A stretch of DNA of 64,000 bases from an uncultured delta proteobacterium. Lineage in GTDB: Bacteria; Desulfobacterota; Desulfomonilia; UBA1062. Made by a program: the position numbers and the translations under genes. Shown here one piece after another: positions 2,714 through 15,076 of the stretch; the stretch's first letter is position 1; each line of letters opens with the position of its first letter. The stretch is taken from contig CAWCTR010000004.1 in NCBI GenBank assembly GCA_963798485.1, positions 381,801 through 445,800 of the forward strand. The letters are read 5' to 3'. Below the pieces are notes generated by a model, which did not search any database, was not told the DNA's origin, and saw nothing but the letters and a program-made list of their open reading frames with translations.

Positions 2714-2801
2714 AAGGACGTTTTTTTATCCCTGATGGTTGGGTACAAAACTAATAAACGCCATCGCTTTGCAGGAGGGAGAGGATAATGAGAGGTAAAA
2801 A

Positions 2802-3608
2802 GTGATAGAGACAGTACAATATGAACAGGTAACCCAGATACGTATGAGCAGGGAGCTCGACGGCAAGCCGGTATACTGGGTAGCGGCCCACCTGGTCAAC
2901 GGGCTGCTTATCGACACCGGGTGCAGTCATACCTCGAAGGAACTTGCTTCTTTCCTTCAGGACAAAGACCTCAAGCAAGTGGTCAACACCCACTACCATG
3001 AGGACCACATGGGCGGGAATCATGACATCATGAGCAGATATGGTATGGATGTGTATGCGCATCCCGATTCCATCCCCCTGATCGCCAAGAGGTTCGACCT
3101 CTATCCCTACCAGGAAATAGCCTGGGGCTATCCTGTTCCGACAATTGTAAAACCTATTCCTGCAGTCCTAAGGACCGATCATTACACATTTCAGATAGTG
3201 GATACCCCCGGTCATTGCATCGGGCACGTCTCCCCTGTGGAACTTTCAAAAGGGTGGTGCTTTACGGGCGATCTCTTTGCCCGGGAGAATCCGAAGTTTA
3301 TCCGGCCCGAAGAAAATATCGGGGAGATCATACGATCCATGCGCAAGGTCATCGAGCTCCCTACGGAACGACTCATCCTATTTACCGCAGTGGGAAAGAT
3401 CGTTCAGGACGGGAGAAAGGCCCTGCGTCGGTGTATTATTTACCTTACCGATCTTGCTGCAAAGGTTCACAAGCTCCATGATTCAGGATCTACCATTGAC
3501 GAGATCCTGGTCAATGAATTCGGAGGTGAGCATGTATTCAGTCAGCTCACGAACGGCCAGTTCTCCACACTCAGCCTGATCAACTCGCTCCTGGAAACAG
3601 CGTCATAA
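2802..3608 (+). CDS. MBL-fold metallo-hydrolase
   Basis: LIDTG, THYHEDHMGG, TPGH and FTGD motifs. Confidence 0.9.
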   Translation: MIETVQYEQVTQIRMSRELDGKPVYWVAAHLVNGLLIDTGCSHTSKELASFLQDKDLKQVVNTHYHEDHMGGNHDIMSRYGMDVYAHPDSIPLIAKRFDLYPYQEIAWGYPVPTIVKPIPAVLRTDHYTFQIVDTPGHCIGHVSPVELSKGWCFTGDLFARENPKFIRPEENIGEIIRSMRKVIELPTERLILFTAVGKIVQDGRKALRRCIIYLTDLAAKVHKLHDSGSTIDEILVNEFGGEHVFSQLTNGQFSTLSLINSLLETAS

Positions 3609-8979: not shown

Positions 8980-11913
8980 TCAGATATCCCTGATGGCTTC
9001 TCCGACCTTCAGGGCAAAATCGTTCATACTGAAAGGCTTCTGGATAAAGTGCACCCCGTGCTCCAGCACACCGTGATGGACAATGACGTTTGCCGTATAT
9101 CCGGACATGAAGAGGATCTTCATATCAGGCAGCATAGCCTTAATGCTGTCCCTTAACTCCCTGCCGCTCATCCCCGGCATCACCACATCGGTTATTACGA
9201 GGTCGATGGGGGTATCCCTCTTTTCGCATAAGGCAAGGGCCTCCAGAGGGTTCCCTGTAGATAAGACCGTATACCCTAATGTTTCAAGCATATCTATTGT
9301 CATCTTGCGCACCATATCGTCGTCTTCCACCAAAAGAATCATTCCGGAACCGGAGGCCACCTGGGTTTCATTGTCCTGTTCAAGAATCTCCACTCCTTCC
9401 ATGCTTCGGGCGAGATAGATCTTGAACATGGTCCCTTGACCGGGTTCACTGTAGACATTAATGAAACCATTGTTCTGCTTGACGATCCCGTACACCATGG
9501 CAAGCCCAAGCCCCGTTCCCTTGCCGGTCTCTTTCGTGGTGAAGAAGGGCTCAAAGATATATTTTAGGGTTTCCCTATCCATTCCCGCACCATCGTCGCT
9601 TATCCCCAACAGGACATAGTAGCCGGGGGTGAACCCGAGATGATCCCGGCAATAGGCCTGATTCAGATGGATATTCGCCGTTTCTATGGTCAGCTTGCCC
9701 CCATTCGGCATGGCATCCCGGGCATTGACGACGAGATTGACAAGGATCTGTTCAATCTGTGAGGGGTCAGCCTTGATCTTCCAGAGATCTTCTCCGGGAT
9801 AAAAACGCAGGTCGATATCCTCGCCGATAAGGCGGGCAAACGTATTTTGATCACTCGTGATCAGGTCATTCAAATCCATAAGCCTTGGCTCAATGATCTG
9901 TTTTCTGGAGAATGCCAGGAGCTGGGCAGTGATGTCCCTGGATCTGCTGGCTGCCCTTTCGATCTGCACGATATCCTGTAACAGGGGGTCTTCTGCGGAA
10001 AGACGATTTTTAATCAATTCAGCATATCCGAGAATGACGCCCAGCATATTGTTAAAATCGTGAGCCACACCGCCTGCCAGGCGACCGATGGACTCCATCT
10101 TCTGAGCCTGAAGCAGTTGTCCCTCCAGCTTGGCCCTCTCCTCCTGGGCCCTCTTGCGCTCAGTGATGTCCCTGGCTACCCCCAGGACCTCAGTGGCATG
10201 GCCGGTTTCATCCCGGTTAAAGGTGGCCGTAACCTCTACCCAGACAGTGCCTCCGTCTTTGTGGAATACCTCCAACTCGAACGTTATTGACCTGTCCCTC
10301 TCGATAGGTTCCATGCTGCTTTCCCTGGCCAACTCCTCCGACAAAACCTGCTCCACCAGGGCATATGATGCGGGTGTCAGTTGCTCCTTGAGGGACATGT
10401 TCCGTATTTCTTCAGCGGTATAACCGGTGATCCGTGCGATGGACGGGCTCATATAGGTGTAGTACATCCCGAGATCCATGGTATAGATGGCATCGCGCAT
10501 ATTCTCTGCGATCATCCGGTAGCGTCTCTCGCTCTCCTCGATGGCCTTCTCCGCATTGATCCTCTCCGTGACATCTCTCCCTACGCCCCAGAACCCGATA
10601 GGCTCCCCGGATAAAGAGCGCAGAAGCGAGATGGACATCTCAATTATTCTCTTAGTCCCATCCTTTCTGATAATCTCATGATCGACGACATACAGTGGTT
10701 TGCCTGTGCGATAAATCTCGTTAAAAAGCCGGTACACCCTCTTTGCTGCCTCAGGAGAGGTATAGGCCCTGTAGTTCATACCCATGAGTTCTTGGCGTGA
10801 ATACCCATGATCTTCACACAAGGCCTCGTTGAAAAAGGTGTAGTTGCCCCTCAGATCCAGTTCAAAGTATGACTCCACCATGTTCTCTAATATAGTGCGG
10901 TGCTTCTCCTCGCTCTCACGCAATGCCTGTTCCGCCTGCTTGCGCTCGGTAATGTCGCGAACCACCCCCCTGAAGCCCGCCGGATTGCCCCACGCATCAC
11001 GCAGCAAGATCACCGAGGATTCCACGGCGATCTTCTCTCCATACTTGTTGATAACCTCCCAGTCGAATCCCTTGATGGTCTCGCCGCTATTGAATACATG
11101 CCGGAAAACCTCAAAGACCTTTTCCCCATTCTCTTTGTCCACAAACTGCCGGAAGCTCATGCCCATGACCTCTTCATTGGTATAACCGAGCCTCTTGACC
11201 GCTGTGGTATTGAAGAACGTCATTTTCCCAGTGAGGTCTACCTCGAAATATGCCTCCTCCATACTATCCAGGATGTTTCTATAGCGTTCCTCCCTCTTGC
11301 TGAGGTCGACCTCTGCCTTTCTGTGCTCGGTTACATCCCTGGCCAAGGCCCGGAACCCCACCGGGTTTCCCGAGGGACCGCGTAAGAGGGCGGCACTCAA
11401 CTCATGAATTCGTACTGACCCGTCCTTTTTGATCACCTCATAATCAATCATGCGTTCAGATATCCCGGTTTCGTAAATCCTATGGAACACTTCGAACATC
11501 TGTTGCGCCGTTTCAGAAGAGGTGTACCGGCGGTAATGCATCCCGATCATTTCATCATGATCATATCCCATCATCTTGCAGGCAGCCTCGTTTAAAAACA
11601 TTACTTTGCCCTTGAGATCGATCTCGAAATACCCCTCTTCGATACTATCGAGGATCCCTCCGTACCTCTCTTCGCTCAGACGCAGCGCTTCCTCGGCCAG
11701 CTTTCGCTGGGTAATGTGCTGTGTTTGCTCTTGCTCATTGAGTCCGCTTGGAGGCTTTGTGGGATTCAACATCTTGTTGATTGCATCAGCGAGTAAGTCG
11801 ATCTCATCATTCTTTCCTGAGACATCAAGCTTTATCGAATAATCGCCTGCCACAGCCTTCATGACTACATCAATCATCGTATTGATACGGTCCTTTTTTG
11901 ATTTTCCAGCCAT
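8980..11913 (-). CDS. Multi-PAS hybrid sensor histidine kinase/response regulator
   Basis: Four PAS/PAC repeats, AHDFNN H-box, NARDAM, GTGLGL, C-terminal receiver (DVVMP...KPF). Confidence 0.92.
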
Positions 11914-12020
11914 AGGTATTGCCCCCGATTACCCTATAGGAATTATTCTGTACACTATATACACACAAAGATGAATAACACCTTCATTTCTTGCGATGCG
12001 CTCCGATATCCGGTTTAACG

Positions 12021-12051
12021 AAAAAGGGCGAGCCATGAAAGCCCGCCCTTT
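12021..12051 (-). terminator. Intrinsic terminator of the candidate ncRNA
   Basis: Minus strand AAAGGGCGGGC-tttcatg-GCTCGCCCTTT-TT; the single imperfect pair is G-U only on the minus strand. Confidence 0.75.
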
Positions 12052-12121
12052 GCGAATGCGTAAAGTATTGGTCGGCTGGCTGGGGTGTAAAGGTCATTCA
12101 GTCAAACAGGGTCATGAGATT

Positions 12122-12211
12122 TTGCCCTGCGCGGCCCTACCACGCCTTGCACTATCGTGCCTCACCACGCCACGACTTGTCTTGCCCAGCCTTAACGCGT
12201 CGGACCAAACC
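12122..12211 (-). repeat. 18-unit GGY-NN pentamer array
   Basis: GGTTT GGTCC GACGC GTTAA GGCTG GGCAA GACAA GTCGT GGCGT GGTGA GGCAC GATAG TGCAA GGCGT GGTAG GGCCG CGCAG GGCAA; 11/18 exact GGY, 7 single-substitution variants, pyrimidine at position 3 in 18/18. Confidence 0.85.
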
Positions 12212-12237
12212 ACGGTCTTTACGCATCCGTATGTTGA

Positions 12238-12265
12238 ATAGTAATTCCGACAAGGGCATTGTCAA
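12238..12265 (-). promoter_or_regulatory. Sigma70-type promoter driving the candidate ncRNA
   Basis: TTGACA (12260-12265), 16-nt spacer, TACTAT (12238-12243); predicted TSS ~12230 at the base of the closing stem. Confidence 0.7.
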
Positions 12266-12381
12266 TAGACAAAACAAATATTTTTTCCTTAGTGTTCTTG
12301 GTAAGATAAGGACTGAAACCTCGAATAAGAATATTCAGGGTCTGGACTTCTCCCTTATGATTCTGTTAAAATGGCATCATA

Positions 12382-13884
12382 ATGATGGCGAGCGTGCAAT
12401 CAGCCACCCTGTGGGGGACTGATGCGCTTGGTGTTGTAGTTGAAGCTGACATACAGGGAGGTCTGCCGAGCATATCCATCGTAGGTCTGCCCGACAGCGC
12501 GGTCAAGGAGAGCAGAGAACGGGTCAGATCGGCCATTCTCAATTCAGGCCTCGACTTTCCACCCAGGCGCATCACCGTTAACCTTGCCCCTGCGGATGTG
12601 AGAAAGGAAGGAGGTACCTTCGACCTCCCCGTATCCGTGGCCATCCTGGCTGCTTTGGGCCTGGTACCAAGGGAAATTCTGGGCACCTATCTCATTATGG
12701 GTGAGCTTGGTCTTGACGGCAGCGTCAGGTCCGTGCGCGGTGTGATCTCGGCTGCTTTTCTCACCAGGCGCATGGGGCTCAAAGGCATCATCTGCCCGGC
12801 CGCCAACGCCCACGAGGCACAACTTGCAGAGGTTGAAGTCCTGCCCGTGAAAAGCCTCAAAGAGGCCTTTGCAATCCTGAGGGGTTCCGAGATCGCCCCG
12901 TGGAAGGCACCACAGACAGAAATCAAGCCACAAGACTCTGTGCGACTCGATCTTTCAGAGATAAGGGGACAGGCCCTTGCCAAACGCGCCCTGGAGATTG
13001 CCGCTGCAGGCGGTCATAACCTCCTCATGGTCGGTCCTCCAGGCGCAGGCAAGTCCATGCTGGCAAAGCGCTTGCCGACCATCCTGCCGCCTCTGACCAA
13101 AGAGGAGATCCTGGAGTGTACCTCCATCTATTCTGCTGCGGGCAAGCTCAGGAGAAACACCATCGTAAGCATCCGACCCTTCAGGGCGCCTCACCATACC
13201 ATTTCGGATGCAGGGCTCATCGGCGGAGGAACCATACCGACTCCAGGCGAGGTGAGCCTTGCACATAACGGTGTCCTCTTCCTTGACGAGCTGCTTGAGT
13301 TCAGACGAAGCGCCTTGGAGTCAATGCGTCAACCTTTGGAGGACGGACACGTAACCGTCTCAAGGGCGAACTTCTCATTCACCTTTAGAACGAGTTTCCA
13401 GCTCGTGACCGCCTTGAACCCCTGCCCGTGCGGATATCTTGGACACCCGGCACGGGAATGCAGGTGCCCGCCGCTCTTGGTAACAAAATACCGCTCACGC
13501 CTTTCCGGGCCTCTCATAGACCGCATCGACCTCCATGTCTGGGTGGATCCTGTGGACGCAGAGAACGTGCTGGCCCCCAAGGACAAGCCCTCGTCCGGAC
13601 TCGTGCGCGAGCGGGTTATGGCGGCGCGTTCTACCCAGATGAACAGAGGGTGCCTGAATGCAAAGACACCTGATAACCGTCTCGAAGAGAACTGCAAAAT
13701 CGACCAAACATCAAAAGGGCTCCTCATCGCCGCCATGAAGAGATATAACCTGAGTATGAGGGGATTCACCCGGGTCATCAAGGTGGCCCGGACCATCGCC
13801 GACCTTCAGGGGTGCCCTGACATCCGGGGTGAGCACATTGCAGAGGCGCTTCAGTTCAGGCCTGAATTGGGACGGGGCACGTAG
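12382..13884 (+). CDS. comM: YifB/ComM Mg-chelatase-like AAA+ ATPase
   Basis: IVGLPDSAVKESRERV, GPPGAGKS, PFRAPHH, LFLDE, NPCPCG. Confidence 0.93.
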   Translation: MMASVQSATLWGTDALGVVVEADIQGGLPSISIVGLPDSAVKESRERVRSAILNSGLDFPPRRITVNLAPADVRKEGGTFDLPVSVAILAALGLVPREILGTYLIMGELGLDGSVRSVRGVISAAFLTRRMGLKGIICPAANAHEAQLAEVEVLPVKSLKEAFAILRGSEIAPWKAPQTEIKPQDSVRLDLSEIRGQALAKRALEIAAAGGHNLLMVGPPGAGKSMLAKRLPTILPPLTKEEILECTSIYSAAGKLRRNTIVSIRPFRAPHHTISDAGLIGGGTIPTPGEVSLAHNGVLFLDELLEFRRSALESMRQPLEDGHVTVSRANFSFTFRTSFQLVTALNPCPCGYLGHPARECRCPPLLVTKYRSRLSGPLIDRIDLHVWVDPVDAENVLAPKDKPSSGLVRERVMAARSTQMNRGCLNAKTPDNRLEENCKIDQTSKGLLIAAMKRYNLSMRGFTRVIKVARTIADLQGCPDIRGEHIAEALQFRPELGRGT

Positions 13885-15002: not shown

Positions 15003-15076
15003 TGGCTGGGACGGGAGGATTCGAACCTCCATAACGAGATCCAAAATCTCGTGTCCTGCCATTAGACGACATCCCA
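15003..15076 (-). tRNA. tRNA-Gln (TTG)
   Basis: TGGGATGTCGTCTAATGGCAGGAC...CGAGA-TT-TTG-GA-TCTCG...GGTTCGAATCC...CCA; typical position upstream of prs. Confidence 0.95.

Follow-up and report, generated by a model that had tools for sequence, protein, structure and literature searches.

Promoter, transcript and terminator

The stretch of DNA analysed here (‘the window’) comprises 64,000 nucleotides of an uncultured delta proteobacterium of the Desulfomonilia (NCBI GenBank assembly GCA_963798485.1, contig CAWCTR010000004.1, positions 381,801 to 445,800 of the forward strand) and, unless a contig or locus is named, positions are numbered within this window. At 12021–12230 its minus strand encodes a predicted transcript of ∼210 nt, hereafter the small RNA (sRNA), which consists of a structured body of ∼180 nt followed by an intrinsic terminator; its extent is drawn from the conserved block in an alignment of 13 genomic copies (A1), from a covariance model built from these copies (R1), and from contigs of RNA libraries. 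Sequence comparison indicates that the sRNA is a new RNA family which, among the genomes searched, is almost confined to a single genus of Desulfomonilia.

Direct reading of the sequence and a promoter scan agree on a −35 hexamer TTGACA (12260–12265, minus strand) and, after a spacer of 16 nt, a −10 hexamer TACTAT (12238–12243, minus strand), which together constitute a near-consensus promoter of the sigma-70 type (10 of 12 positions matched); in 1.5 kb, four promoter-like sites were found, versus 1.2 expected from shuffled sequences. The hexamer TTGACA is kept in all 13 aligned genomic loci and also in L121, L093 and L096, and the −10 element is kept as TAYTAT in the same 13 loci. In L090 and L026 the −35 hexamer reads TTGTAA instead, and the promoter of the diverged copies L090 and G071 is TTGTAA/TATTAT. 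The predicted start of the sRNA is the A at 12230, eight nucleotides past the −10 hexamer.

At the other end, the terminator (12021–12051, minus strand) is formed by an 11-bp stem (12051–12041 with 12033–12023) containing a single G-U pair, a 7-nt loop, and a tail with a run of five U that extends to 12021. It is highly conserved, with 21 of 27 columns invariant and 100% of the cells paired in 20 sequences. The terminator was identified by direct reading of the sequence and from the computed fold; a terminator scan missed the hairpin, as its stem takes up part of the T run.

Secondary structure and covariation

The 212-nt sRNA folds with a minimum free energy of −88.7 kcal/mol (z = −4.17), and none of 200 shuffled sequences is equally stable, so that the computed structure is better than chance. 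The consensus fold, obtained with RNAalifold from 13 copies and assessed by counting pairs in 20 copies (1055 cells), consists of seven helices, that is, the closing stem H1, H2, H3, the hairpin H4, H5, the terminal hairpin H6 and the terminator, which form a three-way arrangement. All strands described in the following are on the minus strand and, like the hairpins, were delineated from folds and pair counts. H1 (5′ strand 12217–12229, 3′ strand 12053–12065) comprises 13 pairs in the copy of the window (12229–12217 with 12065–12053), one of them G-U; across the 20 sequences, 98.1% of the cells of its 12 modelled pairs are paired, the changes being G-U pairs and one double change. H2 (12203–12208 and 12068–12073) contributes six pairs, two of which are changed on both sides. 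H3, formed by GGCUGGG (12185–12191) and CCCAGCC (12078–12084), is paired in 100% of the cells and provides the best single case of covariation, with column pair 44/162 being U-A in 12 copies, C-G in five and U-G in three. The hairpin H4 (12154–12176) lies within the long 5′ arm, holds the first of two conserved CGUGG motifs, and shows C-G (11), U-A (5) and U-G (4) at column pair 57/77. H5 (12133–12140 and 12087–12095) has eight pairs with four double-sided changes, 92.4% of its cells being paired, and H6 (12107–12129; 12129–12125 pairing with 12111–12107 in the window) closes a variable loop. Folding 17 copies individually likewise yields H1 and the terminator in agreement and H3, H4 and H6 mostly, with H4 predicted in the majority of these folds.

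In total, 97% of the 1055 cells are standard pairs, compared with 28–48% when the partners are slid against each other, and nine pairs are changed on both sides among the 20 sequences. The percentage of paired cells, the count of double-change cells and the covariation score all exceed those of every one of 500 shuffles. The strand of the RNA can be read from the wobble pairs: closing stem and terminator each contain one G-U pair, for which the plus strand would have an A-C mismatch, and many of the single changes in the helices yield G-U pairs that are valid on the minus strand only. An all-against-all search for covarying columns, in which clade effects dominate, supported neither a pseudoknot nor an alternative antiterminator.

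An earlier annotation of this DNA, made from the letters of the window alone (the first-pass annotation), had anticipated much of this architecture. The minus-strand promoter TTGACA-N16-TACTAT, a start at ∼12230 directly at a 13-bp closing stem, the nested helices TTGGTC/GACCAA, GGCTGGG/CCCAGCC and CAGGG/CCCTG, and an 11-bp U-tailed terminator immediately after the body are all found where it had placed them, the named helices being 97% paired across the 20 sequences, and its argument that G-U pairs betray a structured minus-strand RNA holds both in the copy of the window and across the copies.

Conserved sequence elements

The two arms of the sRNA differ in length and composition: the 5′ arm spans ∼105 nt with 38–46% G, and the 3′ arm ∼58 nt with 33–43% C. 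The surplus of the longer arm is made up of hairpin H4 and two unpaired linkers, one of which, the G-rich 13-nt segment J45 (12141–12153, minus strand; defined from 20 sequences), contains the beginning of the second conserved CGUGG, which runs on into H5. Eight of the 13 columns of J45 and four of the eight columns of the inner loop IL2 are invariant in these sequences, and the column conservation of J45 and IL2 (0.90 each) compares with 0.78–0.97 in the helix strands. Unpaired segments are thus as conserved as the helices, while the terminal loop of H6 varies.

When a motif is counted as conserved only if 80% or more of the 17 full-length copies carry it, CGUGG qualifies at two columns and no others (58 and 88, ∼30 nt apart) and GGC at four positions of the 5′ arm. 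There is no conserved GGA column among the 17 copies, with a mean of 1.6 GGA and 0.4 A(N)GGA per copy, and Tandem Repeats Finder returned no row for the sRNA at a minimum score of 30. An ‘array’ of GGY motifs that had been described in the first-pass annotation can hence be retained in part: the four GGC and two CGUGG sites are conserved, but they do not constitute a tandem repeat, and in the clade of the window the middle units are lost. Likewise, the proposal that the 3′ arm partly masks the G motifs is correct for H3 and H5 and incorrect for hairpin H4 and the 13-nt G-rich linker.

In the genome of the window, a frame of 24 codons opens at an AUG located five bases into the sRNA. However, one-base insertions or deletions at several alignment columns break every reading frame among the copies, and therefore no reading frame is conserved.

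Distribution of the family

The assembly from which the window originates comprises 4.3 Mb in 32 contigs and is 97.5% complete. A BLAST search with the 261-nt unit identified one copy in this genome and copies with 70–90% identity in 11 of 14 other genomes of the same genus, including two diverged copies in G003, and none in 22 genomes of other genera of the family or in 24 genomes of the sister family. Model R1 recovered the same 11 genomes, with the copies of the genus scoring 204–237 bits, as well as a single genome (G071, where the copy is cut by the contig end) among 37 that represent other genera of the family. G071 is the only one of 12 genomes of its genus (g5) with a copy, the remaining matches in that genus being short and terminator-like. 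In the alignment of 13 loci the mean column identity is 87%; alignability begins at the −35 hexamer and ceases just past the terminator, the flanks not being conserved, and it is the whole 180-nt body that is conserved rather than a single seed.

Of the matches obtained with relaxed filters in the three genomes of the genus without a copy, the best, in G001 (23.6 bits), consists of a terminator and the end of a coding region and was rejected; the corresponding matches in G005 and G013 score 16.5 and 18.4 bits, and the alignment in G013 comprises little beyond the terminator hairpin. A pattern in IUPAC code found 23 stretches on genome contigs, of which R1 confirmed 11 as true copies. Three of the other 12 were rescored with filters switched off and rejected as homologues, and the remaining nine were not matched by R1 under default filters (E up to 0.001). 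On metagenome contigs the pattern found 39 stretches, 17 of which are true copies at E up to 1e-5 and contribute six further sequences, among them L090, a diverged copy of full length; on viral contigs it found none. Neither did 22 further comM loci of the family, comM being a frequent neighbour of the sRNA (see below), yield an R1 match at E up to 1. In the literature library searched, no paper mentions both Desulfomonilia and small RNA.

Occurrence in RNA libraries

An index search yielded 17 runs from 13 studies with small shares of the sampled words, 13 of these runs being recorded as RNA. Contigs from four RNA runs (X1, X2, X3 and X5) were mapped at a likeness of at least 80% to the region 11700–12600; the other 13 listed runs, with small shares (0.06), were not used. 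In the wetland runs X1–X3, which come from three studies, 227, 134 and 164 contigs could be placed, and they cover 12041–12230. The summed word depth in the bins of 12041–12257 rises to 2.1×10^5, 8.3×10^4 and 1.8×10^5, respectively, figures that add up relatives and are a poor measure of expression; in the bin 12227–12257 it falls to 140–636, and in a freshwater-sediment run the depth is 9. The only flanking piece covered is part of comM (12475–12536), with a depth of 1.4–8.

At 12230/12231 we observed a loose end (X1) and a joint (X3), both of which continue into the reverse complement of the sRNA's own sequence. Such fold-back is expected of cDNA at a 5′ end and hints at, and agrees with, the predicted start. 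Contigs are absent over 11700–12040 and 12258–12474, and no listed contig joins the terminator to the downstream kinase gene; gaps in contig cover prove nothing, and we draw no conclusion from them on termination or on the silence of the flanks. The contig ends at 12041–12042 coincide with the inverted repeat of the terminator and may reflect breaks in the assembly instead of 3′ ends of the RNA. Taken together, the libraries provide good evidence that the sRNA family is transcribed, and the family is probably abundant in the wetland RNA libraries.

Neighbouring genes

In the window, the sRNA is followed on the same strand by a gene for a PAS hybrid histidine kinase (8980–11913, minus strand), whose start lies 108 nt past the terminator, and it is divergent from comM (12382–13884, plus strand). 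comM adjoins the sRNA in 9 of 13 loci: it is divergent in G000 (the genome of the window), G007 and G011, and in six genomes it follows the sRNA immediately and in the same orientation. Where comM is divergent, the terminator is followed on the same strand by the PAS kinase (G000) or by ilvD (G007, G011). In 4 of the 13 loci the downstream gene is convergent to the sRNA. A tblastn search with the kinase located it beside the sRNA in one of 14 loci (the 13 aligned ones and L026), namely in the window itself, and the closest relatives, with 90% identical sRNA, have ilvD in its place. Since the flanks are unconserved and the neighbouring genes vary, we regard the sRNA as a gene in its own right and not as a leader of the kinase. 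It is, in our view, very likely a stand-alone gene that is expressed. The attenuator leader of the PAS kinase, which had been put forward as an alternative in the first-pass annotation, can thus be set aside, given that the kinase follows in the window only and that the downstream gene is convergent in four of 13 loci.

Several observations on the surroundings may be recorded here. In the clade of the window, the order is comM, divergent sRNA and then ilvD (G007, G011). In E. coli, the ilv leader lies beside yifB/comM; the resemblance is probably a coincidence, because the sRNA has no leader-peptide frame. The match to comM in G011 (L003; C132:5638–6591) is in two pieces, in which residues 1–208 and 421–499 are matched and the middle is missing, and that in G005 (C70:36272–37764) consists of two overlapping pieces; these split matches possibly reflect broken genes or assembly errors. 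A tRNA gene at 15006–15076 (minus strand, 62.6 bits) is the sole Rfam match at gathering score in the window.

Relation to 6S RNA

The first-pass annotation had also considered a divergent 6S-like RNA. With Rfam 15 at gathering score, the window gives no match at the sRNA, and permissive Rfam scans of 701 nt and of 196 nt gave no 6S match at E up to 10, the other matches being at chance level with E above 1. The sRNA thus has no significant match to any family, 6S included. Moreover, a covariance model built from 16 local 6S sequences (R2) found no match on the sRNA in six sRNA loci, and nhmmer with four 6S sequences of the family found none in seven. The ‘bubble’ of the sRNA is one-sided, with a 5′ side composed of 8 nt, a 23-nt hairpin and 13 nt (∼44 nt) and a 3′ side of 2–7 nt, and the sRNA would therefore not be a mimic of an open promoter.

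The genus itself is without a recognisable 6S RNA. The 6S model RF00013 has no match in the genome of the window at E up to 10 and none in any of the 15 genomes of the genus, whereas all 16 genomes of the sister family contain one (101–129 bits). Among ten other genera of the family, represented by one genome each, three have strong matches (68–91 bits), two have weak ones (∼19 bits) and the rest have none, so that 6S appears to be unusually fast-evolving in this family. The RNA of the signal recognition particle (SRP), RNase P RNA and tmRNA are found normally in the genome of the window, and of the four only 6S is missing.

Passages of one article (PMC7641849) describe the gene order zapA-ssrS-ygfA as common, although not universal, for 6S. 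The genes that stand beside the canonical 6S of relatives have orthologues on contig C31 of the genome of the window, where zapB and zapA are followed by a spacer of 249 nt, ygfA (5-formyltetrahydrofolate cyclo-ligase) and RNase Y. By synteny, this spacer (L074:2496–2744, minus strand; C31:32995–33243), located between zapA (2745–3026) and ygfA (1950–2495), occupies the classical 6S slot. BLAST detects it in 8 of the 15 genomes of the genus, including that of the window, and inspection by eye reveals in it a terminal hairpin and a stretch of CCAAC that are also present in 6S from sister genera. R2 finds nothing significant there (5.4 bits, E 3.1, on the terminal hairpin), and neither RF00013 nor any other Rfam model matches; nhmmer gives weak, co-linear same-strand 6S matches in six of the eight spacers (E 0.03–1). 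The spacer is thus probably a strongly diverged or remodelled 6S.

In the spacer alignment A4, RNAalifold pairs the C-rich 5′ end with the G run before the ygfA start codon (columns 24–29/248–253), and one pair of this long-range helix shows three double changes; according to this predicted fold, the helix may hide the ribosome-binding site of ygfA. A sub-threshold match to the guanidine-III riboswitch at L074:3504–3560 (minus strand; 15.2 bits versus a cut-off of 36, E 2.5), which contains the core CCGGACGAGG, probably arises by chance, being antisense within an open reading frame with a GAF domain.

Across the family, several other genera have neither an RF00013 match (one genome each) nor, apart from G071, a copy of the sRNA. 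The absence of 6S and that of the sRNA hence do not complement each other, since other genera without an RF00013 match are also without the sRNA. To the extent that sequence, fold and synteny allow one to judge, the sRNA is not an orthologue of 6S: the notion of a divergent 6S-like RNA fails on the 6S models, on the two-sided bubble and on synteny. A 6S-like function is possible, albeit unsupported.

Interpretation

The comparisons show a module that is under selection for both sequence and fold and is retained while its neighbours change. The conserved module, the kept helices, the varying neighbours and the contigs of the RNA libraries all support the discrete, rod-like small RNA unit proposed in the first-pass annotation. 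The explanation that we favour, with slightly less than even confidence, is that the stand-alone sRNA acts in trans as a stable protein-binding RNA with a putative partner. The closing helix would join, and thereby protect, the 5′ and 3′ ends, and it would hold out the 105-nt G-rich 5′ arm against the 58-nt C-rich 3′ arm. The G-rich segments that are both unpaired and invariant, among them the two CGUGG motifs ∼30 nt apart, may then form a putative contact surface for a protein, for which RNA polymerase is one candidate. The partner would be titrated or scaffolded, possibly in a dimer or larger assembly. We count toward protein binding the conservation of unpaired segments, the two CGUGG sites, the variable terminal loop, the lack of an extended antisense target in the genome (best E 0.67) and the two diverged copies in G003.

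Several findings weigh against this explanation. A conserved unpaired stretch together with a U-tailed terminator also fits a base-pairing sRNA of the Hfq type. Three genomes of the genus (G001, G005 and G013), two of which are 98–99% complete, are without a copy according to both BLAST and R1, and the sRNA is therefore either dispensable or located in assembly gaps. As an array, the 5-nt GGC units are not conserved: in the clade of the window the middle ones are replaced (one of these changes is compensated inside H4). The contig depth shows neither the strand nor the true ends of the RNA, in addition to summing relatives. Finally, at least as many double-change pairs as observed arise in 27 of 500 shuffles, and at least as many pair types in 128 of 500; the sequences represent only about five clades and thus few independent covariation events, and an all-against-all column scan produces many spurious ‘covarying’ pairs from clade structure. 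Because of these few clades and spurious correlations, the covariation is supportive of the fold and short of decisive.

Among the rival explanations, an Hfq-dependent sRNA that base-pairs in trans is unlikely, although a realistic option. Its seed would be the G-rich linker or an opened C-rich 3′ arm, and the U tail of the terminator would serve as the handle for Hfq. This would suit the stand-alone promoter-terminator unit, the very conserved terminator with its run of five U, the Hfq gene of the genome (74.3 bits), the conserved single-stranded segment of 13 nt, and the diverged duplicates in G003, which are typical of regulatory sRNAs. However, conservation spans the entire 180-nt body instead of one seed, ribosome-binding sites would not pair with a G-rich seed, and the consensus fold has the C-rich stretches engaged in helices. 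A blastn-short search of the sRNA against its own genome found as best antisense match 15 nt at chance level (E 0.67), a search that short seeds would escape, and the summed depth in the RNA libraries is, with the caveats on contig depth, unusually high for this type. We consider doubtful that the sRNA is a functional analogue of 6S or Ms1, that is, an abundant rod-like RNA that would bind RNA polymerase and lower transcription while cells grow slowly, in a genus without recognisable 6S. The distribution of RF00013 (0 of 15 genomes versus 16 of 16 in the sister family), the loss from view of 6S alone while SRP RNA, RNase P RNA and tmRNA are all found, the closing stem, long imperfect duplex, large unpaired region and high library depth, and the precedent of Ms1 (PMC4191392) would argue for such a role; the lack of 6S similarity by Rfam, R2 or nhmmer, the one-sided bubble, the non-complementary occurrence across the genera, and the zapA-ygfA slot elsewhere in the genome, which keeps its own spacer with the only (weak) 6S-like matches, argue against it. 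It is tempting to speculate that the ancestral 6S was remodelled beyond recognition, perhaps into a leader of ygfA, and that an unrelated G-rich sRNA has taken its place as the abundant RNA of the stationary state, sequestering the polymerase or another global regulator, a scenario that we hold to be quite doubtful.

An orphan RNA with a tertiary fold that senses a ligand in the manner of a riboswitch, or is catalytic, as a unit of its own would account for the concentration of invariant nucleotides in internal loops and junction strands, for the three-way arrangement of the helices, and for the closing helix abutting the terminator, as it does in off-switch riboswitches. Yet the downstream gene is inconsistent and in four of 13 loci convergent, no pseudoknot or antiterminator is supported by a covariation scan that is swamped by clade effects, and no riboswitch or ribozyme of Rfam matches, so that we judge this explanation improbable. 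Very improbable, finally, is that the locus is a cis-acting leader or attenuator of the PAS hybrid kinase, or a gene for a small protein. The co-directional kinase, starting 108 nt past the terminator, and the 24-codon frame in the genome of the window point in these directions, but the kinase stands beside the sRNA in one of 14 loci, with ilvD there in the closest relatives, and one-base indels between the copies break any frame.

Significance

The sRNA adds a hitherto undescribed structured RNA family, while the kind of gene that it represents, a stand-alone bacterial small RNA, is already known. Its hosts are uncultured anaerobes from assemblies of peat, wetland, sediment and sludge. Because of the very high summed depth in three wetland RNA libraries, the sRNA could explain a visible share of the unassigned reads of wetland metatranscriptomes, and it could also be used as a marker of the lineage. 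Its presence in a genus without recognisable 6S, an RNA that is otherwise near-universal, turns replacement or modification of 6S into a directly testable question; this, along with the apparent abundance in wetlands, raises the sRNA above an ordinary orphan. If the speculation on a remodelled 6S were true, the sRNA would represent, after 6S and Ms1, a third architecture of RNAs that titrate polymerase or a regulator, in uncultured wetland anaerobes.

Comparison with known RNA families

Several classes could be rejected as relatives. A riboswitch or attenuating leader lacks a consistent downstream gene (PAS kinase, ilvD or comM, with 4 of 13 convergent), and an antitoxin of the type III ToxI kind would call for tandem repeats followed by a terminator and a toxin gene, and neither a tandem repeat nor a conserved downstream gene is found. 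Of two candidate partner proteins, TRAP has no match in the genome of the window, and the TROVE domain (PF05731) of Y RNA/Ro60 particles is unmatched in this 97.5% complete genome. The genome does encode CsrA (PF02599, 85.6 bits, C7:316904–317059), and the sRNA resembles CsrB, RsmY and RsmZ in being stand-alone and apparently abundant and in carrying a repeated purine-rich motif; in contrast to these, it is without the defining GGA or A(N)GGA motifs and has CGUGG twice instead. A CsrA sponge is thus unlikely, as no GGA is conserved.

With Hfq-dependent trans-encoded sRNAs it shares its own promoter, the U-tailed intrinsic terminator, the presence of an Hfq gene in the genome and the restriction to a lineage, but it is far more structured and conserved over its full length, and no seed-target pair was found in a search that short seeds would escape. 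The raiA motif RNA and OLE, two orphan structured RNAs, are both in Rfam and neither matched the sRNA. The sRNA is thus unrelated to them in sequence and fold and has a much narrower taxonomic range, and it is like them in its size (∼200 nt), its own transcription unit and its conserved junction nucleotides.

When compared with 6S, the sRNA matches no 6S model, its unpaired region is one-sided and G-rich, and it is located beside comM or elsewhere and never at zapA-ygfA. Moreover, it has its own intrinsic terminator, whereas 6S is processed from the zapA-ssrS-ygfA transcript. The two nevertheless fall into a similar size class (∼180 nt without the terminator), have ends joined by a closing stem, and combine a long imperfect duplex with a large unpaired region, the sRNA being apparently abundant as well. 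Ms1, with a length of ∼300 nt, is actinobacterial, and the sRNA shows no relation to it in sequence or model (no Rfam match). According to PMC4191392, Ms1 of mycobacteria is an sRNA strongly expressed in stationary phase that binds the core of RNA polymerase and was first seen as an abundant transcript; the sRNA described here is likewise a lineage-restricted, structured and apparently highly expressed RNA of bacteria without a canonical 6S.

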